Part shown: piece by piece, positions 2,568 to 62,977 of the stretch
How positions within the stretch are numbered: position 1 is the first letter of the stretch
How the letters are laid out: the number at the start of each line of letters is the position of its first letter
Source of the DNA: Tubulanus polymorphus
Taxonomy: Eukaryota; Animalia; Nemertea
Direction: 5' to 3'
DNA: 64,000 bases
Assembly (NCBI RefSeq): GCF_964204645.1
Contig: NC_134026.1
Location: 5,107,950 to 5,171,949, forward strand
Position numbers and translations under genes: made by a program
Notes under the pieces: model-generated
Databases searched by the model: none
What the model was told of the DNA's origin: nothing
What the model saw: only the letters and a program-made list of their open reading frames with translations

Positions 2568-3873
2568 CTATTTGTAGAGAATGTGATGAATTTGTTTGGT
2601 TTGTCGATTAACGGAACCATCGGCGCGATCAACTGCTATATTTATTCTCTCAATTTGATCGTTTTGAGACTCTAATTCGTCATTAAATGCCATTCCCATG
2701 TTCTTCAACCGAGACAACGTCGAGCTCATTAGACCTGAAAAAAAAACACCACACAATTCATCAGTAAAATTTGTTTATTAGCCAACTCGTAATATAGCGC
2801 CCCCTAAAACCAGTTTCATGAAAAGGATTACTCTTAAATCAATAAAATTTATCCATTAATTCAGTAGATCTTAAATTGATGATTTAGGGTTTACTCCGTT
2901 CTAAGAAACAGGGCCCTGGGTAGTATATCAGGTGATGTGGGCTTGTATATTAGGGGATGTGGGTAGTACATCAAGGGATGCCAACATTGGAACAGAAACG
3001 TCTGATTTCCTAGATTCAAGATGAAAATGTCAAATCACCTAAATTTTCATCGAATTGTTCTTCATTCGATTTCGACTTGACCGAATCGGCTTGTCTAGCT
3101 CCGTACGGGGAATCAACAGTATCTTCTTCACGCAGCCGAATTGCCGGGTGAACGCCCGATTCCTTTTCATTGTAATCGTTTTCGACGACATCGTTTAGTC
3201 GGCTAGTTTTTTTTCGCACGGGTTCAGGTGGCGGCGAGTTAGTTTCCTTTTTAGAAAACCAGTTTTTTAATCCGCCGAAAACACTCTTGATTGAGTTTAT
3301 GTGTCTTTGAGTAGTTTTCATTGATTCATTTATTTCAGTTGCCTTTCCTTCGATATTATCCAACTGTTCGCCTTGTCGGACAAGTTCCTGAAATATTCAA
3401 ATAATCACAATTAAGTATACCTTCAAAAAGGGCAATGAGGAATTGATGGATAAATCCACAGGGGCCTGACACAAAAAGTTTTTGACTCCAGTATCCTAGG
3501 TACTACATATAAAAAGTCTTCTTATATATTGTACCTTAGGATACTACTGGGCCCTGGGGTAAAACAATTTTGTGTCAGGCCCCTCTGTGTGGACAAATCA
3601 CTGGCCTAATAATTAACTTGCTGGTCATCTTACCTCCGCCGTAGCTATTCCCATTTGCTCAGATTCGTATAAATGAACTAAAGACCGCTGTTGACTGGCA
3701 AGTTGACTTTCCTCAGAATCCTTGATTTTTTGAAGCAGCGCATCCCGTCGACTTTCAGCGGTATCTACGCCGCCACCGAACGCACCCATATTCGCGTCGT
3801 GTCTCTCCGTTCCCCAACTATCGTCGTCGTAGAATGGATTGCTCGATCTCTCGTGGTCGTCCCATTTCGACAT
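2568..3873 (-). CDS. SNAP29: Synaptosomal-associated protein 29 (Qbc-SNARE)
   Basis: Exons 3873-3634, 3387-3039, 2734-2568. N-terminal NPF motif (SSNPFYDDD), first SNARE helix (ESEQMGIATAEELVRQGEQLDNIE...HINSIKSVFGGLKNWF), second SNARE helix (LSRLKNMGMAFNDELESQNDQIERI). No palmitoylation Cys cluster, so SNAP29 rather than SNAP25. Confidence 0.95.
3461..3583. mobile_element. Small MITE in SNAP29 intron 1
   Basis: Perfect 16-bp terminal inverted repeat GGGGCCTGACACAAAA ... TTTTGTGTCAGGCCCC, with further imperfect internal symmetry. Confidence 0.65.
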
Positions 3874-3929
3874 TTTTTACAAATCACCAGATTTATTCTG
3901 AGAATTATTCGAATGAGTTTCGATTTTTT

Positions 3930-3980
3930 ATTTGACAGCGCCACATATACTTCCGGGTTAGCAGCGCCCTCTAGTAGTGG
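3930..3980 (-). promoter_or_regulatory. SNAP29 proximal promoter: ETS site and CTCF-like motif
   Basis: ACTTCCGG (ETS, CCGGAAGT on - strand) near 3948-3955 and GCGCCCTCTAGTAG (3964-3977, 13/14 to the CTCF consensus), about 60-105 nt upstream of the ATG. Confidence 0.5.
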
Positions 3981-5088
3981 TAGTAGCTATTTTCAACCCA
4001 AATTTACTATATTGAATTACTATCTAAATCATATCTATTTGTAGAGCGTAATTATCTGGATAAAGATATGCAATTAAGTAATAGAAACCCCCAGGAAATA
4101 TATTCTGGGATTTTTATTTGCAATCGTATGAATAGTCGGTTCAGAACTATATTATTTCCGAATGGGCCCAAAAGCATGCCGAAGCAAGGGGTACTGGTCA
4201 GTGGTCAGCCTACTATTGCCTAATCGGTCACCGATATTGTAGTGATATAAATATCCACAAATCAAGAGCAAAAGCTGTGAATTATTTCATGACAAAAATT
4301 ATATTTAATCATCTCGTTATCCATCATATACAGATAACATTCCAATAATCCTGAGAAATGTGGATTAATGTGGTTAAACAAATACATGAAAATGAAAATC
4401 ACTACCACCACCAACTAAAATCATATGACTCAATTACTGTGTAAAGCACTGATAAAGCATCAGCCAAGTTACCGGTATCAGACCGACCCTTGACATTACC
4501 CACAAAGAATGATATTAGTACAATCATATTTTTAGAACTTATGTCACACTCTTAGCCTCTTAGCTTCATGAGTTATCAATCCCATGTATAATTCAATTAA
4601 TCATACTACAATAAATTTCACAATTCTCTTCTCATGAATGAAGCTGATAAATTCAAGAACCTAATCCAGTGTATTCTGAAAACAAACTAGGGGGCCAGGG
4701 ACACCCGTGTTCTGTTGGTGAAATGCTTGAATGCTGATTATTTCAATTATTTCAGCGCCCTCTGGTGCAGACATACTTCCTTAAATGAATTTGTCACGTC
4801 TACAGCCAGACAATTTAGTGAACGAATAGCCCATTGGGGTACGACCCAAGTTGGTTAAAAAAAAATGTCACTATTTACAATTGCGGAATGAGTTCTAGAA
4901 CAATGAGCCTAGCACACATCCTTTACAAATGATGCCGAATGAAGTTCAATTTATGGGTGTCATCGGAATTACCTTAAGATGTAAACTTTTAGGCAACCGA
5001 ATAACTCAAAGTCATGTATCTAATATGAAATAGTCGAGTAATTGAGAGAAAACCATCAAGAGCTTAAATTAGCACCACACAGATGTGT

Positions 5089-7163
5089 TCATGAAAAATC
5101 AGTAAATGAACACAAGATTATTCCATTGTTATCGTAAAACTCAAACATATCGTCACTACGCAAAATACGCATTTCATGTTCCCTTTCTACGGACATTGCA
5201 AACGTATCTGGACCATCTCCGCAGCCAGCATCGCTTGATATGGCGGGATACCCTGGATGAACCATCAATTCACAAGTGACTTGATTTTTATCACAACTCG
5301 CAAAGTTTTTAGTGGCCATCGACACAATATCATTCAGTTTTTTCTGAAGTCGTCCAACTGTCATGCAACTACCCAATGTCATCAATCCAGTGAAGTATTC
5401 TGCATGCCTAAAAATCAATGAGGACAAAAATAAGTATTTTCTTAAACATTTTTCTGAAAAGTAAGCTCTTTTAAGCACTTTGAACCCTATGATAAATAAA
5501 AGACCCATAATCACAATTCGATCATTAGTAAAAATGTACCTAAGCTTGAACTGATTGAAGATTTTACGACTAGCAGCAGCATTTTCGATACAAGCTTCGT
5601 TGAAAGCTAAACAAGACGGCGATACGAACCAATCACAATCGTGCAATCCAATTTCATACGGTAATCTTGTGTAGTTGACTCCGTAACTAGTAACTGCTTC
5701 AGCGAAAACCTGATTGACACCTGAAAATACAAACCAGTAAATAATACAGCTTCATTCTAGTATGACTACAGAAGCCCATATACCTGGTTCAGTACTCGGA
5801 ATTCGTCAGATCTGTCCAAAAATTAAAATATTTTCTAACTCAACACATCATGGATCATCAGCAGGATCTGAACCTGAAGGCACCAAGATGAACGGTACAG
5901 TCAAGTTGATTTGTTCATAAAATCAACACTTTTGGAGTAATAGAATATATCAATGATATCCATCTTTTTGGTACCAGCACTTTTTCAAGAAAGATATTTT
6001 AGTAAACCTTGCCTTACTTTGTCACGACCAACTCAGTCTTTTGACCACCTTGAACAACGAAGTCATTTTTCTGTATCTTCCGATCCTTAATTCCAACTTC
6101 GCTTACCTCGGACCAATTTTTTTGGTCCCAGTTTGTCCGTGTTTGGCAAGGTTTAATACATAGTAAGTGAAGTTATATATGATTACACTTAAAATTTCAA
6201 TGTACAATTTGCATACCTGGTAGAATATGTACATGTTGATGGCCGTCCACATGGACTGGACATACTCCAGTCAGTTTGATAAATAATTCGATTTGAGCAA
6301 CCATTTCACGTTTCAAATCTGGCATATTTATCGATCCCGACTCTAGTAGTGTTATGAATGACATTTTATCATGAAAGCTTCCCGTGTCATCAGTAAGGCT
6401 AGTTTGAAGGGTCGCTGGACAAATCGGCTTTCCTTCTGTTACATTCATATGCAATCCTGTTAATAAAATCATATCGAGTGAATAAATATTGGGGGTGGGT
6501 GGATCTACTGTTGTTCATTGTAGAAAATCTAAATTTAGCAGTGCTTTCACGGAGGAAAAACAGTTTAAGACAATGATATCATTTTGGCATTTGAGATTTT
6601 GGGGGAGCAAGCCTCAGTGGGAATCAAAAGCGTATCATGAAAATTTTGTTGAGACTAAAATTATTGGGGAGAGGCATATATGCCCCACCCTTGCCCGGCT
6701 GATGCCGCCCCTGGTAGTTTACCTAATTCAATAATACATGTATTTATTTTTCCATAAGGATTATCAAAATATCGATATAATGCGTCCACAATAACTAGTG
6801 GGTTTGAGCACTCTTTTTCAATTGAAAGGCAGGAGGAATACAATCGAAAGAGAAATGTTGTTGCCCCAAGATTCTACCTCAAGTTCCATATGAATGCTGG
6901 ACTGAGGAAACCGGAAATTCAAAGACATTGCACCTTACATTAGAACACACTTAAACATGTCCAGAACAATACATACCAAGTGGCAAATTGTATTTCTTAG
7001 CTTGAGCAACTGCAGATTCAGCAGCTTGACCGTTGACAAGTAATGATGCACTCGTAATCGACTTCTTATGCAGAAAACAATCAATGATCCCACGATTTCG
7101 TTCATCACAATATCCAAAATCATCTGCGTTTATCACAAATTTCATGAATTCCTTCGAAGCCAT
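5089..7163 (-). CDS. YDJC: YdjC-family carbohydrate deacetylase
   Basis: Exons 7163-6977, 6456-6217, 5720-5540, 5407-5089. Motifs INADDFG, GLHMNVTEG, HVDGHQHVH, ELMVHPGY and EREHE are the YdjC/ChbG catalytic signature. Confidence 0.93.
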
Positions 7164-7867
7164 TCTGGAAATTTACAAAGAATCACATGACTCGATTTTC
7201 AATCAGTAAGTGGGTCATAAAAAATTATCATGATCAAATTGACTACCAAATTTTTTGAAGTAGTTAGATACATAATCTATCCTCCCTAAACATGACTATA
7301 AAAATATAGTATAGTACGTTGAAGTCTAGCTCGAGGAAACATTTTCGTCCTTCACACTATTTTTTTTATTATAGTGGAATTCTCTATAAATCATTGTTAC
7401 AACAGATGTTGTTTTATCAATGGTTATAAGTTACAAACATTTATCTGGACTTCGTGATCCCATTTTCTAGTTATCTAGTACTTTAACAGTTGGTCCCAAC
7501 GAGGCCCTTAAACTGAAATACCAGCAAAAGTGGTATTCAAAACGATAAACATATATGTAAAATCTGGACTTCTTAAAATCCTGACGAGTAGTAGCCTAAA
7601 TATTGATCCCAATTAACGCAGGTGTTACCAATTCTTCCAGGGTTTGATCATTCAGACTTCAAGTGTGTTGTTCACAGGACATGACCAAAGACATTAGATT
7701 CTGAACAAATGAACTCATTCAAACTTCACGCCGACATAGCCTTAGATGAGGGTCTGAGGAAAGTTGTTCAAGGCTGAAGATTGCAGGTTATTATCATAAC
7801 TGAAAAACAAAAACTATTGCGAAAGAAACTTCCACGCTAAATAGACACTTCACCTGCTTACCTTTTC

Positions 7868-55591: not shown

Positions 55592-58424
55592 ATGGCAGAT
55601 ATAACGAACTTGTTTAAAGCCACTGTAAAGGCTGTCCGATCACGTCAGAAAGCTCAAAACAAACAGAAAGATGCGGAGAAAAACCACCAACAACATCATA
55701 TATTTCCGACAAGTAGACAAAAATCTGAATTCTCTCAGAAAGCCAAAGATCTGGTGAGTTTAACTCAAATAACAATCAACTTTATTCAAACATTTTGTGT
55801 AGCAGTTTCATAGGGAGTGGATATCTTGCCATTTTGGCATCACTCTAGTGAACACTATATTGCCAAAACTGAAAAATCTGATTTATTCAATTAGGGTTAG
55901 AAAATGGGTCCCTATAGTAAAACCGATTACCCACCTGTATATTTCAGGTTGGAAATATCAGCAAACTACGAGATTTTTTGATGGAACATCGAAAAAATTA
56001 TGTTAATGCTGGAAAGTAAGTTCAAGTAGTTACATACCTATTGGTGTTTCTGAATACCAGATAATCTTGCCAGTTGAACTACAGTTTAGATAAGCTTACT
56101 AGATTAACCTTCTATGGTGTTGAAACTATTAGTGCATGATCCATAAATACTGTATCCCTTGGTTCAACTGTGACAGATACAGTCAATTATTTTCCTTTAA
56201 GTCATTTGACAAATGAATCGAACCATATGACCGATGATGAACGGGATCGCATTGACTTGGATGCTCAAACCTTCATACAAACATGCCAGGAGACGATTCG
56301 AATCTTGCGAATGGAAGGTAAAGAGTTCAAGGGTTCAAGTTGTGGAGCTTCTTAATTTTTACTTCGATGCAATTTCTCTAATTCTGTATTTTCAGCATTT
56401 AACAACAAAATCTCGTCACAAATGAAAGAACACAGAGAAGCCATGTTTGATCTTATTCAAACATATTTGAAAGGTAAGAGATTGTTTCATAGTCAATATT
56501 GTACAGTTGTTTTGATGAGAAAATTCTGTGTCACGTATGAAAGAATTTTTCATCCAGATGAACTGTAGCATTCACTAAAATCTACTGCATTTCTTTTTTT
56601 CAGGCATCTGTAAAATATACAGCGAACAGAGAGCGATACGTGTGAAGCGCGCTGTTGATAAGAAGAGAATGTAAGACTGAAGATGCTCCTCCACTGAGGG
56701 GCAGATCCAGGATTTTCAAGGGGGGTTGCTCTGCTAGTCAATCAGACACCAAACTGCGAGTACTGAAAGCTAAAAGCAATGTAGAGGGGAGTTAGGGGGA
56801 CCCCTCAGAGAGTTTTGAAAAATTAAATCTCATTTTCTTGATCTAGTACCCAAAGTTTTTTAAGACCAGCCTTAAGATTTAAGACCACTTTTAGACTTTA
56901 GCCATGACTGTGCAACTAGCCCCTGCAGCTTATAACGTTTGCCTAATCACGTTTTTAAGTTGAAATGATAAACACTTTCAGATCTCGATTGGAGCCAGTT
57001 GAGAAGAAAGTACGTCACAGTCGGTCAGTTGAGCCGTCTGATTCATCTACATCGGTCGATTCAGATACAACGAATTCTAGTCTCAAAAACGTTGATCCGA
57101 TCAAAACTGCATCTCCATCTATAATCACTCCGCCGGTTAAAGAAAGACCTCCAGGTATAGAATCGTGTAATTGTTTTTAGAATTTCCGAATTCAATGATT
57201 GTGGAGGATTCGTGTTGATTTCTCTTTTCAGCGCCTAAGTTTATTCCGACAACATTTGGAGAAGAGGAAGATGAGTTATCACCTGAAGAAATCAATGCGG
57301 TAGGTTTATGATGCCCTTAGTTGAAAGGTAGTTCCAGTAGACTTGGTTTACCTCGAATCTCGAACCTGACAGACCAATAAATTCTTAGCAGTACGTTATT
57401 CAGGGGTTCCATCAGAGCTGGGATGGGTCAGTATGAATTGTGGTAAGAAGATTTATAATCTATTGTCCCAAGTATGTGATAGTCAGAGGCTGGAGGTTAA
57501 TGGAGTCTACTGTAGTAATAGTTCAGAGTCAGGAGGGAAGAATCTGAGGAAATTGTCGCTGACCCTTGGATTGAAATGTAGAACCTTTCCATAAAACTGG
57601 GGCTGTACTGTGTATTTATAAACAGGGTGGTCACTGACCTGGAAAACTCAGAGAAATCAGGGAAAACTCAAAAGGAATTTGATAGATTTAAGCAAAAACC
57701 TGGAAATTCAGATAATGCTGATGACCACGTGTTTCTTTATCAGTACGTGAATCAATGAAAAATTAATGAATTGTTACATTTTAGACGTAGAAACTTCTCT
57801 GATTCACTCAGGGAATTTTGAGTAATCACATGGAAATATTCAGGGGAAACTCAGGAGATTCGTAAATGGCCACCCTGATGAAGTTCTTAAGACAATGTAT
57901 AGATGTGTAATTTAATGATTCATTTATGCATGATTTTCAGTTTGAACAGGAGAATCAGCAAGTTTATCATGAAATGAACAGCATAGTTGATGAAGTCAGG
58001 TATAGTCTTTTAGATATGAATGCATCTTCACTATATTCCTAGATTTTCTTCGTGCCTAAATATCCGTTCTGCTTTTCCAGACAAATCGAAGGAAAAGTAG
58101 TGGAAATATCGCGTTTGCAAGAAATATTCGCGGACAAGGTTTTGGAACAAGAAGGCGATATCAATCGAATTGCTGACACTGCTGTCGGAACTACAGAAAA
58201 CATCAAAGAAGGAAATGAAGAAATCCGTGAGGTATTAACAACCAACCAATATGTGGCTTTAAAGTTGAGAGATTCTGTATCTGCTCGGGCTGGTTTCATA
58301 GATTAGGTTTTTATTTTTCTCGTTTCAGGCTATGAAAAACAACGCCAGCTTCCGAGTTTGGATTTTGTTCTTTCTCGTAGTGCTATCATTCACTTTGTTG
58401 TTTTTGGACTGGTACAATGGTTAA
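55592..58424 (+). CDS. STX18: Syntaxin-18 (ER Qa-SNARE)
   Basis: Exons 55592-55753, 55948-56015, 56202-56317, 56396-56473, 56604-56670, 56982-57154, 57232-57299, 57941-57999, 58081-58231, 58329-58424. [113 protein letters not shown] (tail anchor). Confidence 0.96.
57623..57877. mobile_element. Family D MITE in an STX18 intron
   Basis: CAGGGTGGTCA ... TGGCCACCCTG TIRs; flanks ATAAA / ATGAA. Confidence 0.8.
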
Positions 58425-58903
58425 TCATCGACTCATCCTCTAAATGATTTAAAGACTTTAGTGTGATAGTAATTGTGCTGGAAATGACTGAGGAAATAAT
58501 TAATTCTCTGAGAATTGTTCGCTTATTGATATTGATAATGTTTGTGTTAAATGAATAATATATTTATGCTTGAATCCATTGTTATACCTGTGCCGTCTTT
58601 CGTTGTTATTGGTGTTACAACTTCAGTATTTCTCCTCCTCTGATTCTATGCATCTGACTGTCAGGACATCGGTATCTATAAAATCAGTACTCAACTTGGA
58701 GACAGTGCATTATTATTATAATTCTGACTTAGCATTTATCCGCCAAAAGAAACCCAGATTCGAACCAAAACTTTATGATTGCTCGAAAATTCAATGGACT
58801 ATATACTCGGAGATCTCTAACAAATCAATTTATTTTAAAAAAACTGAGGATTTTGCTTGTATAAATAGTTGACATTTTACGAATAAGAAACCAAACTCCA
58901 ATA

Positions 58904-59856
58904 CTATTTTAAGTTAACTATCAGCATTGAGAGATTTTTTAAAAATTCTACAAAATCATTCAACAGTTGGAAATTACGAACATTATTCTTGGCCACATCG
59001 TTTAGTCCGGCAGAGGTGAATTGTTTTGGAGCTATGTAGATCGGTCGAATGTCTAAATACCGAAGTTCTTGTTCAAACGAACACAAAACATCCATCTTAA
59101 TTCGCTTCAGTAAATCGGTCAACTTTACTCTAAAACTGATCGGCTTCGGACAAACGTTCGCAGATGAAACTGCCATGCCCCCGACTATATTTTCGTCGCC
59201 AGGTATCAAAACGTCTGAGATGAACTTGTAAAGTATGCTGATATGACGGTAAGACTTCAGGATGATATTCGTTTGACAGTCCGTGGCCAGCACGCTCATA
59301 TTTGGTGACTCCACGATCGGTATACGAGAATATTGATGAATTATGTCTCTGTTACATATCCTTGCCAATCCCTGTTGATAAACCAAAACAAAATCAAAAA
59401 ATTACGTTATTTTGCGTTACTTTAAACTTAATCTGAATCTCAAATCACACTTACAAATTTGTCCTTCAGTTCATTGAACTCTGGAATTATCACTTCAAGA
59501 TATTGATGTATCAGGCGCCAGTTCGTTTGGCGAGCGGTCGTTGATAGAGTAGGATTGTACTTTTGGAGAGTTGCGTTGCATGGACCATACACCGGAATAT
59601 CCCCTGGAGAAACTGGTTTGGCTTTCACCTCTATACCAGCCATTATACAAGATATTACTAGAATTACCTGGAGATCTATTGAAAAAGAAACAAATATATC
59701 ATTATCATCTTGATATCCGAATTATTGTTTAGTAAGACTAAATAATTGCTTTTTTAAATTAAATTATATAAAGGTTGTAAGTTAGAATATCAGTACTATG
59801 ATATCTATTGAACTTCGCTTACCCATCATTTGAATAGACTTTTTCTTCGATTGCAT
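58904..59856 (-). CDS. Secreted 240-aa protein, putative IL-6/Unpaired-like long-chain four-helix cytokine
   Basis: Exons 59856-59823 (34 nt), 59675-59455 (221 nt), 59371-58904 (468 nt) splice in frame. Signal-peptide-like LQVILVISCIMAGIEVKA; four amphipathic segments; C-terminal NVRNFQLLNDFVEFLKNL. The gene model is well supported; the family call is inference. Confidence 0.72.
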
Positions 59857-59894
59857 AAAGTTATCTTATGATTTCACGTAAGAAATTTCGAAAA

Positions 59895-60145
59895 GAACTG
59901 ATTGTCAAGTGAATAATTGAGCATCTTTATACTTACTTTTTGGAGAATTGGTATTGGTATCGGTTTCGATTGCAACTGAAACTATTTGAGGATAGCGATA
60001 CTGGTTGTCATGGAGTCCGAATTTGTAATTGTTGGCGAGCATTTTTTCGCATCCACTGGAAAAACCCAAATAGAACTCGACCATCCGACCACGGCATAAT
60101 CCCAAACAAATAATCAAAAAAATGTTTTAAGTGTTTTGCAATATT
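59895..60145 (-). promoter_or_regulatory. Promoter of the cytokine-like gene: TATA, Inr, kappaB-like and C/EBP-like sites
   Basis: On the - strand: TATAAA at 59931-59926, TCAGTT Inr with A at 59899 (TATA at -32), GGGTTTTTCC at 60067-60058. TTTTGCAAT near 60134-60142 on the + strand. Confidence 0.6.
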
Positions 60146-60396
60146 TTTAACATAAAGATGCACATTCATCTGTAAATTGTACGAAAGACTAAGAATACAT
60201 ATACGCTTGATAAAATTCACGTGATAAACCTAGTTGATATAATGTGTCATGAACTGCAAGTGTTTTTTCCTCGTTGCTGCTTTCTTTCCTCATCACAATG
60301 TTATCTCATACTTGCTATCGTAAAAGTTACTTGCACAAACACCAAAAATAAATCGGTTCTCTGTTCTGACGAATTCGCGGTGCCGGATATACGCGT

Positions 60397-62022
60397 TTAG
60401 TTAAACATTTCATTACACCGTAAATGACGAGAGTGGATGGAACCAAGACCCGCGCGTGGAACCTTTTCCGTTCGAAACAAATCTTCTCTAATATTCTGCA
60501 AATCCATCAAATGCTGATTATCCGCGGTTGTTTCCGAAATGGCCCATTCAGCAAGCGGTTCGTGGTTTTCGTAAACGATACTGTAACGATCGTATTCCGG
60601 CCAATTGTAATCGTAATCCGCGTCAACTTGGTTATCCAGCACTACGTGGTCATCCTCAAGAAAACTCTCATCCTGTTTTTTAGTAGAGGAATTTTCAAAA
60701 TGTATAGTTTTGAATTGACTCTGAACAGATGATGGTCTGATATTTCGACCACCATCTGCTGAGCGACGATCCACTGGAGCTCGTCCAACCCACGTAGTGA
60801 CATCCGGATCCAAGACTGCTGATTCGGGATGCTTGATGCTTTGACGAATCCACGACCCTGACGTAGTTGGTACGATCACCTGCCTAGAAGGTACATTATG
60901 TAACCCATCGGAATGATGTCCCCAGATCTGTGTTGGGGTAGGGCAACATGGTCGGTTCAAACCGGCCGTATATAGAATGGGATGAGTGAGCCCAAGGGCC
61001 GTGACCGGGCGCAGGGGTAACGCAGGAGTCAGTGGCTGTAAATTGACAGAATCAACAAAAGGACGAGTAATTCCGCTTGTGGCAGGACGGTGTACAACTG
61101 GCTCTCGAAACGTCTGTCGTTCTCTGAGGATAGCGAATTGAGATGCAATTGCCTCCTCGGTGGCCATCTCATTGAGATCCGCTGAGAGCAGAACGCTTGG
61201 AGATCTATTAGGGCGATTGGTTAGTTGTAGTTCGGTTGTGTAAAATTCTAGTGCATTGTTCTTAGCCTCTTGCCCCGTGGAGTAGCTCGTCGGTGAATGT
61301 TCAATTCTTCGACATGTTCCTTGCATCACGCTGTCCACTCCCCCAGCGCCAACGCTCGAGTTTTCCCCCACCCCGTTACTATCGAATGGATTCTGCGGTC
61401 GATGTGTCGGCAATGGGCTTTGTGGATCCCGCATTACGACTAGGGGTCCAATTTTATTTTCGGTCCCGTCGCCGTGGTAGGGTTGCAACGTGAATACTCC
61501 AGTTGGCGGTGATTCCCCTTGCTGTTGAAATAACGGTTCGGTTGCTCGGTAGCAACAAGTGGTGCGGCATTTCAGAATGACTTGTAAAATGCCCAAAGCA
61601 AAACACATCAAATATAAAAACGCGTTTAACGCCGCCAAAACGATGACAACATTTCTCGTCGAAATGTCGACATTGCAAAGGGAAGCTGTAGCGAAATCCT
61701 GTTGAGTACAGATGTGCATGTGCGTGGAAAGATCAACTGCCGAAACACCGATTGCCGCCAGGAGTAAAACGGCCGAAAAAGGCCACGAAATGATCCCGAA
61801 AACGACGAGTAAGACGCTACTCTTTTCTCCGCTTAGGACACCGAATATTCCCGTGATAACGGTCGTAATGGCTGACGGGAAAACGACCCAAGCAAAACTG
61901 ATGTAATTTCCGATAATGAATGAAGTCGTGTTCAAAAACAACGTCAAAACGCCGCCGATTATCTGAACAATCCCGTATCTGAAAATCAGTCTCCGTTGAT
62001 GATCACTCGCGTGGTATTTCAT
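60397..62022 (-). CDS. MS4A/CD20-like four-TM protein with a long disordered cytoplasmic tail (single coding exon, 541 aa)
   Basis: Longest ORF in the window. Four hydrophobic segments in the first ~150 aa (GIVQIIGGV; ITTVITGIFGVLS; FSAVLLLAAIGV; LNAFLYLMCFALGILQVI) followed by CRTTCC, like the CD20 family. 5' UTR intron supported by an acceptor at 62062 and a donor at 62358. Confidence 0.75.
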   Translation of the reverse strand: MKYHASDHQRRLIFRYGIVQIIGGVLTLFLNTTSFIIGNYISFAWVVFPSAITTVITGIFGVLSGEKSSVLLVVFGIISWPFSAVLLLAAIGVSAVDLSTHMHICTQQDFATASLCNVDISTRNVVIVLAALNAFLYLMCFALGILQVILKCRTTCCYRATEPLFQQQGESPPTGVFTLQPYHGDGTENKIGPLVVMRDPQSPLPTHRPQNPFDSNGVGENSSVGAGGVDSVMQGTCRRIEHSPTSYSTGQEAKNNALEFYTTELQLTNRPNRSPSVLLSADLNEMATEEAIASQFAILRERQTFREPVVHRPATSGITRPFVDSVNLQPLTPALPLRPVTALGLTHPILYTAGLNRPCCPTPTQIWGHHSDGLHNVPSRQVIVPTTSGSWIRQSIKHPESAVLDPDVTTWVGRAPVDRRSADGGRNIRPSSVQSQFKTIHFENSSTKKQDESFLEDDHVVLDNQVDADYDYNWPEYDRYSIVYENHEPLAEWAISETTADNQHLMDLQNIREDLFRTEKVPRAGLGSIHSRHLRCNEMFN

Positions 62023-62977
62023 CTTTTAAACTAAAACTACCACGATTAACATTGATTCCACCTGAATTGTTTAAACTATCTAAGAATCTATTTTAAACGA
62101 TGTAATCGATATCGATATTTAGGATGGAAAATGAAACGTTGTTCACGTTTCGAGTTCTTAGCTCCACAATTTTAAGTTTCTGGTAGTTTATTTCAATGGC
62201 TCAATTAGCGGTGAGTTAACAGTCAATCCTACAGTCAATCCTACTCACATGCGAAAACACAAGTTCGTTTGAAGAGTTGTAGAACGGTCTACGGATCTTA
62301 CTGAACGCATATAAATACATCCACATAGAGTGAAGTAATGAATGCTTTGTAATCTTACCGCTAAAGTTTTATCTAACAATATTCCTCTCTTCTTCGGATG
62401 TTTCTCCTGTATAGTGATTAATGTATATGCATTATAGATTATTATGATTTACCTCATTATGATTGGGACGTAAGCACTTTTGTGATATACAGCGTGAGAG
62501 AGTTTTGCTGTTTATTGTTCTCGAGAAACTAATTAATGTCATGACAATTATTAATTACCTCGACTGTTGGCAATCTTTACTACTGGACACACAAAAGTCA
62601 GACATGATCTACACGGTTTTGGGGCCGTTCTAATGTTTGTGTTTCTTAAATGAGTATTGAGGTTTTCTTAAACACGTAACTGGAAGCTGGAATTTTTGCA
62701 GTAATATTTTCTCGGATGTTCAGTACACCAATGAAGCTGGATCGTCCTCAGCTGAAAATATTATACCGTTCAGATCTTGAGAGTTCTGATTATGTTCTTT
62801 ATATTTGATAGCTGTTATCATAAAAGTTAAAAGCGACAACGATCGACGAAAAAGATGTGCTAAAAAAGTTGTCCAAAAACGCCGGGTACTTCGATTAAAT
62901 CGACACCAATTGAACCCTCACCGTACAGTGCTGCCACCATTTCAATATTTACATCGTACACGTGTTTGACAGAAATC

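Follow-up and report, generated by a model that had tools for sequence, protein, structure and literature searches.

An unannotated gene of the ribbon worm Tubulanus polymorphus encodes a candidate class I long-chain four-helix cytokine

A 64,000-nucleotide stretch of contig NC_134026.1 (positions 5,107,950 to 5,171,949 of the forward strand; termed the window herein, with coordinates counted from its first letter) from Tubulanus polymorphus, a palaeonemertean ribbon worm, carries on its minus strand a real and intact gene of three exons, which we call the cytokine-candidate gene. The exons lie within positions 59856 to 58904 and join into a 723-nucleotide (nt) frame of 240 codons plus a stop, with zero internal stops. 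The gene is unannotated, and its predicted product is a good but unproven candidate for a long-chain class I cytokine, in a phylum for which none is described in the literature that we searched. Judging from the predictions presented below, a long-chain four-helix fold is highly probable for this protein, and we favor, with moderate confidence, the fuller reading that it has a class I long-chain four-helix cytokine fold and signals through a receptor of the gp130/Domeless type.

The splice junctions were deduced from the DNA alone. Both introns open with GTAAG and close with a pyrimidine tract and AG, and they are richer in A+T than the exons (GC fractions of 0.22 and 0.27, versus 0.42 and 0.40 for exons 2 and 3). 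An initial annotation of this stretch, made from its letters, had proposed a 240-amino-acid (aa) protein encoded by three exons, with a phase 1 intron in the signal region and a phase 0 intron after helix A, and the open frame and GT-AG boundaries agree with that layout (Table 1); all of the motifs that it quoted are present in the open reading frame (ORF) tracks, with the three sequons at N45, N109, and N231. Met10 and Met11 are alternative starts in exon 1. A candidate acceptor 8 nt into exon 2 was dropped, as the resulting frame stops at 59495.

Three sequencing runs (X1, X2, and X3) show zero spliced joints in the cytokine-candidate gene or in the neighboring syntaxin-18 gene, and their contigs continue across intron 2; the runs therefore behave as DNA. 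A single X1 contig covers positions 57791 to 62691, which comprise the end of syntaxin-18, the cytokine-candidate gene, and a CD20-like ORF, so that the locus is not an assembly junction, although the window itself may derive from X1. The second sample (X2 and X3) differs by V216L in helix D, a 1-nt insertion in intron 2, and one change in the 3′ untranslated region (UTR); the sole coding change is thus conservative and the sole indel intronic, but two variants prove little.

A pair formed by a TATAAA box and an initiator-like element ends 43 nt before the proposed ATG, which is the first ATG downstream of the initiator. The pair is the sole match in the window, of which only the position is notable, because 0.97 matches are expected per window: when the DNA is divided into 540-nt tiles, 1 of 236 contains the pair, and that tile is located here. 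Consensus patterns for promoters and sites were picked after viewing the sequence, and TATAAA was tried after the stricter TATAWAW, which gave 0 matches. These promoter motifs bear on a different N terminus, in which an upstream exon-like segment of 119 nt would be spliced in phase 1 to exon 2 and would add 35 to 49 residues before the hydrophobic stretch, giving a membrane-anchored or nonsecreted form. That segment has an acceptor at 60056 and a donor at 59936, is in frame, and is accompanied by ATGs at 60084 and 60042, and in the proposed model intron 1 has a donor score of only 6/9. Its GTAAGT, however, is a sequence found in 30 of the 236 tiles, no ATG intervenes between the promoter pair and the proposed start, and that start yields a textbook signal of basic, hydrophobic, and cleavage regions. 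We regard this N terminus, or a locus that is unexpressed, as very unlikely; the conservative and intronic nature of the variants in the second sample points the same way, within the limits just given.

Other regulatory motifs occur at chance level. GGG-W5-CC has 2 matches in the window, both in the cytokine-candidate gene, versus 2.75 expected; the second lies inside exon 2 (59594 to 59603, minus strand). The STAT site TTCNNNGAA has 0 matches in the 540 nt upstream and is at chance level across the window, as are C/EBP-like sites (38 of 236 tiles).

The protein sequence, read by eye, opens with the likely signal peptide that the initial annotation had marked: residues 1 to 30 have a Lys-rich start, a hydrophobic core (Kyte-Doolittle peak of 2.7 near residue 18), and V-K-A/K-P; cleavage after Ala30 is likely, and no membrane-grade hydrophobic segment was found besides this stretch. 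The predicted mature protein is basic, with a mass of ∼24 kDa and an isoelectric point of ∼9.1. It contains five cysteines (positions 44, 91, 117, 159, and 182), and not just the two of the GPC-VLC pair that had been proposed. The sole Trp is W64, in helix A, and the sole FxxK motif is at residues 165 to 168, at the start of helix C. With its likely signal peptide, the 240-aa precursor lies within the range of 150 to 280 aa given for class I long-chain helical cytokines (PMC13081863).

The strongest indication of the fold came from ESM Atlas, queried with exon 3, for which the best 10 of 30 matches are listed. The first match, an unnamed cluster dominated by chordates, scored 0.95, with 219 of 256 features shared. 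Nine of the 10 listed clusters carry long-chain cytokine families (scores of 0.92 to 0.86), and all rows share at least 180 features. The family shares of cluster members were 14% for Hormone_1, 11% for LIF_OSM, 32% for IL11, 18% and 10% for IL6/GCSF, ∼20% for CNTF/PRF, and 69% for IL12; further listed clusters carry IL12/IL31/IL23 and CNTF (the IL-27 cluster). Every named family among the listed clusters is a long-chain four-helix cytokine, and all 10 of the best named matches are common to one family or clan. In a control with shuffled proteins, 0.95 was reached by 1 of 100. When ten cytokine families were left out, the 0.95 cluster vanished too, which means that it includes one or more members of these families; the only row then listed was Unpaired, at 0.78, with no unrelated fold listed above it. 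No interferon or IL-10 cluster was among the matches listed, before or after filtering. The embedding similarity of the candidate (0.95 to 0.86) is that expected of class I long-chain cytokines.

These matches also speak against the view that the gene encodes some other sort of secreted helical protein, such as a component of ribbon-worm mucus or venom, whose likeness to cytokines would reflect convergence of amphipathic helices. The Atlas neighbors are consistently cytokines, up to a score of 0.95, the filtered query likewise listed no family outside the cytokines, and the intron positions fit the layout of cytokine genes. Toxin genes are often amplified, whereas a single X1 contig matched the gene at 80% DNA identity, with no second copy among the X1 contigs, and no paralogue was found by tblastn within the 64-kb window (best other E value, 4.2). 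We consider this explanation improbable.

Helix predictions agree with the proposed fold. AlphaFold2 (AF2) modeling of residues 31 to 85 gave helices at 42 to 51 and 57 to 84, with blocks of the predicted local distance difference test (pLDDT) at 82 to 88 over residues 61 to 85, which places intron 2 at the end of helix A. Exon 3 modeled alone gave helices at 93 to 98, 113 to 140, 163 to 189, and 205 to 239, at a pLDDT of 34. Across the two modeled pieces there are four long helices of 27 to 35 residues, of which helix A is predicted confidently and helices B, C, and D with low confidence. The four best nonoverlapping 20-residue amphipathic windows fall one per proposed helix, a summed moment that was matched by 8 of 1,000 shuffles of the mature protein, and the helix placement of the initial annotation is consistent with both lines of evidence. 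The same annotation described the A-B and C-D loops as long. The A-B loop spans ∼28 to 31 residues and the C-D loop only ∼15 to 23, and the B-C loop, which is short in the pattern of this class, is long (∼22 to 23 residues), so that the pattern is less clean than described; such lengths would in themselves be no proof of an up-up-down-down topology. The AlphaFold and Foldseek comparison that had been suggested was carried out with the exon-3 model; Foldseek and VIA yielded generic bundles, and their 9 and 50 listed matches include no cytokine, a result that weighs neither way given the poor three-helix model. The products of exons 2 and 3 scored 0.72 as a two-chain complex, versus 0.61 for one unrelated control; halves of one gene may pass complex prediction through likeness to solved structures, and the scores were used neither for nor against the fold.

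Thus, ESM Atlas, the helix predictions, and the gene layout all argue for a secreted long-chain four-helix cytokine, but a number of points weigh against it. The fold signal stems from a single language-model source, since the filtered and unfiltered Atlas queries count as one; the Atlas recognition value of 2306 is barely past the 2300 mark; the families are found in less than half of the members in all clusters but that of IL12; and one-third of shuffled proteins likewise obtain ten matches from the same clan. In the filtered query, a common clan links only 3 of the 10 best named matches, a pattern marked by the tool as probably wrong, so that Unpaired counts as no more than a lead; its score is also under the 0.9 mark of the tool. 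The three-dimensional model of exon 3 is of low confidence, the B-C loop is longer than the class pattern would have it, and the C-D loop is of modest length. Sequence searches found no relatives: a word-based homologue search with exon 3 gave 0 of 22 candidates at an E value of ≤0.1, exon 2 against longer proteins gave 0 of 10 at ≤10, phmmer with exon 3 against 1.84 billion representatives gave 0 at ≤0.001, Pfam scans of the separate exons at ≤10 gave no family for exon 3 and one unrelated weak match for exon 2, and a sequence search of the PDB gave nothing credible. The FxxK motif at the N terminus of helix D, which is 95 to 98% conserved in the LIF/OSM/CT-1/M17 group (PMC9601804), is absent at residues 200 to 220 of the candidate, and the site-III Trp of IL-6 (PMC7378365) is absent at the start of its helix D. 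Finally, the activator of Domeless in shrimp is reportedly a lectin and not a helical cytokine (PMC13203501), and invertebrate receptors therefore need not have a helical-cytokine ligand.

Proteins of T. polymorphus are in the databases, yet exons 2 and 3 match nothing in the searches above; probably the orthologue has not been annotated there, although it may be absent or strongly diverged. Ligands of this kind are difficult to find by sequence, lamprey IL-6 having been found only by a structure-guided search (PMC13081863), and LIF-group cytokines have no invertebrate matches in the accessible text of PMC9601804. According to a 2026 survey, molluscs have IL6R, JAK, and STAT together without a known IL-6-type ligand, and apart from insect Unpaired, it describes no such ligand in invertebrates, for which other kinds of ligand have been proposed (PMC13203501); nemerteans are not mentioned in its accessible text. 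Drosophila Upd3 binds a receptor of the gp130/Domeless type and activates JAK-STAT (PMC7378365), and an Upd-like protein of Aedes does likewise (10.1101/2025.09.21.677592). Among the literature matches listed, none describes a long-chain cytokine from nemerteans or other spiralians, and none gives the intron phases of the LIF/OSM group; subscription papers were largely outside this search, as were supplementary species lists for the former.

In the mechanism that we propose, the open spliced frame, the core-promoter motifs, and the poly(A) signal are present in the DNA. Cleavage after Ala30 would lead to secretion of the mature protein in glycosylated form, and helices A to D are predicted to pack up-up-down-down. 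In such a packing, Cys91 and Cys159 would lie at the top, where they could pair, and Cys44, Cys117, and Cys182 at the bottom, where the disulfide might be Cys44-Cys182, as the initial annotation had proposed, or Cys117-Cys182, leaving one spare cysteine that could link two copies into a homodimer or hold another protein covalently. This split of two and three cysteines is a prediction, not evidence, and would also be compatible with an up-down-up-down bundle in which other cysteines pair. From what is known of the family, helices A/C and B/D would bind the cytokine-binding modules on two receptor chains, which would bring the JAKs of these chains together and activate JAK-STAT signaling. More speculatively, the TATA promoter, the Rel-like site, and the AU-rich element might make this an injury- or infection-induced gene.

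The same fold might serve a different receptor: the candidate could act like a hormone on some other class I receptor, or it could supply the helical chain of a heterodimer in the style of IL-12 or CLCF1, joined to a soluble receptor-like partner, possibly through the spare cysteine. Hormone_1 is carried by the largest Atlas set (9 of 30), at the member share given above, clusters of IL-12p35 and IL-27p28 are among the Atlas matches, the count of mature cysteines is odd, and site-III marks are absent. GH and PRL carry cysteines in helix D or the C terminus, however, where the candidate has none, and the window showed no gene for such a partner. Ligands of the IL-12 family consist of two different subunits, one of them resembling a receptor (PMC4929537); in spiralians, the receptor described to date belongs to the IL6R/Domeless type (PMC13203501). 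On balance, this alternative seems rather unlikely to us, and signaling through a gp130/Domeless-type receptor is preferred. We hold only tentatively the most far-reaching form of this proposal, in which the candidate would be the first ribbon-worm long-chain class I cytokine and a true spiralian Domeless/gp130 ligand, its three-exon phase 1/phase 0 layout ancestral and common with LIF/OSM/CLCF1, and its spare cysteine the sign that it forms covalent dimers or joins a partner in the manner of IL-12.

The cytokine-candidate gene lies tail to tail with syntaxin-18, which is a useful synteny anchor for finding orthologues. On its other side, AATAAA and ATTAAA have 0 matches in the 540 nt between the stop of the CD20-like ORF and the candidate's ATG, and read-through or shared transcripts are therefore possible. 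The introns of syntaxin-18 contain short high-copy repeats at ∼56860 to 56920 and 57610 to 57840, with summed contig depths of ∼14,000 and 740, compared to 30 to 45 elsewhere. Farther away, at 3016 to 7166 (minus strand) and ∼22400 (plus strand), are a gene that we take to be SNAP29-like (weak V-SNARE_C match), a YdjC-like deacetylase gene, and a Rab-effector-like exon (weak FYVE_2 match; E value, 0.005). Several vesicle-traffic genes thus share the 64-kb window. The YdjC-like gene and a T. polymorphus protein at NCBI are identical at 312 of 323 aligned residues (96.6%), with the intron gap left out.

Table 1. Positions of the cytokine-candidate gene, its predicted helices, and adjacent features in the window
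Feature	Position	Strand	Description
Upstream exon-like segment	59937-60055	-	119 nt; good acceptor, perfect GTAAGT donor abutting TATA box; in frame with exon 2
GGG-W5-CC (Rel/NF-kB-like) site	60058-60067	-	∼160 nt upstream of initiator; overlaps possible splice acceptor tract
TATAAA box and TCAGTT initiator-like element	59896-59931	-	TATAAA at 59931-59926, TCAGTT at 59901-59896; 32 nt apart, canonical spacing; likely core promoter
Exon 1, coding part	59823-59856	-	34 nt; Met1-Met11 plus 1 base, phase 1; Lys-rich n-region of likely signal peptide
Intron 1	59676-59822	-	147 nt; GT-AG, phase 1, within signal peptide; deduced from DNA
Exon 2	59455-59675	-	221 nt; hydrophobic core of signal peptide, likely cleavage site, N-terminal arm with Cys44 and sequon N45, helix A
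Intron 2	59372-59454	-	83 nt; GT-AG, phase 0, after residue 85, one residue past predicted end of helix A
Exon 3	58904-59371	-	468 nt; A-B loop (Cys91, short helix 93-98, Pro103, sequon N109), helices B, C, and D, stop
Predicted helix A	59458-59541	-	Residues 57-84, Pro76 inside; short helix 42-51 ahead; AF2
Predicted helix B	59207-59290	-	Residues ∼113-140, Cys117 at start; AF2 low confidence; amphipathic window at 120
Predicted helix C	59060-59140	-	Residues ∼163-189, Cys182 near end, Cys159 in preceding ∼22-residue B-C loop; AF2 low confidence; amphipathic window at 173
Predicted helix D	58907-58987	-	Residues ∼214-240 (AF2 start 205); strongest amphipathic segment; sequon N231; V216L allele
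3′ UTR	58829-58867	-	One TATTTAT element (58867); AATAAA poly(A) signal (58834), 70 nt past stop
Syntaxin-18 gene	55592-58424	+	Pfam Syntaxin-18_N, E value 5.6e-8; tail to tail with cytokine-candidate gene, 480 nt between stops
CD20-like ORF	60397-62025	-	Intronless, 541 codons; four hydrophobic segments, weak CD20/MS4A-like match (E value 1.7), long Pro/Ser-rich tail

If the proposal is correct, such ligands exist in spiralians but escape annotation and BLAST, and the candidate could serve as a seed for searches in annelids, molluscs, and brachiopods. It would also bear on the age of the IL-6/LIF gene architecture; in the most far-reaching form of the proposal, the three-exon, phase 1/phase 0 layout would date to the protostome-deuterostome ancestor. 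With one compact candidate gene located in a spiralian, the matter of the missing JAK-STAT ligand of worms and molluscs can be put to the test.

Among known systems, LIF, OSM, CT-1, CLCF1, and M17 resemble the predicted product of the candidate gene in having a signal peptide, ∼200 to 240 aa, and four long helices. The LIF, OSM, and CT-1 genes have three exons with intron phases 1 then 0, and LIF and OSM have an N-terminal arm whose cysteine can meet the end of helix C, as may also hold for the candidate. The Atlas cluster of LIF_OSM scored 0.92 and those of cardiotrophin 0.89 to 0.90. The three exons of the candidate are likewise found in CLCF1 (PMC8780587), and the long B-C loop of OSM (PMC9601804) is a precedent for that of the candidate (∼22 residues). 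Unlike the LIF group, the candidate lacks a helix D cysteine and has five cysteines in all, and no sequence similarity to the group was detectable by Pfam, PDB, or phmmer searches.

IL-6 has a cysteine at the start of helix B, comparable to Cys117, and IL-6, IL-11, and G-CSF share with the candidate a Pro-containing A-B loop (Atlas scores of 0.91 for IL11 and 0.90 for IL6/GCSF). The first intron of IL-6 genes lies in the signal peptide, as it does here, but these genes are split into five exons by four introns and encode a four-cysteine pattern (PMC13081863); with three exons, five mature cysteines that match neither a four- nor a two-cysteine pattern, and no site-III Trp, the candidate is not an IL-6 orthologue by these marks, and the tie to IL-6 in the initial annotation was not upheld.

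The Unpaired proteins (Upd1 to Upd3 and Aedes Upd-like; PF15972), which are ligands of Domeless, are secreted, glycosylated, and helical, as is predicted for the candidate, and likewise come from protostomes. The representative of their Atlas cluster has 410 aa, versus 240, and helix C of the candidate reads L-C-S instead of the L-C-E motif that had been taken as Unpaired-like; the Unpaired profile was checked with the Pfam hidden Markov models, which gave no PF15972 match. In the oyster, CgIFNLP is a spiralian helical cytokine-like protein tied to JAK/STAT, as is proposed for the candidate, but it is described as class II (interferon-like) and is the only such entry in the accessible text of PMC9756803. 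Class II cytokines have five or six helices, and interferon genes have introns of phase 0-0-0-0 and encode five helices (10.64898/2026.05.30.728932), whereas the candidate has phases 1 and 0 and four long predicted helices. Overall, the candidate resembles long-chain cytokines by prediction and is not assigned as IL-6, LIF, or Unpaired, and its three-exon layout appears to point more to LIF/OSM/CLCF1 than to the five-exon IL-6.
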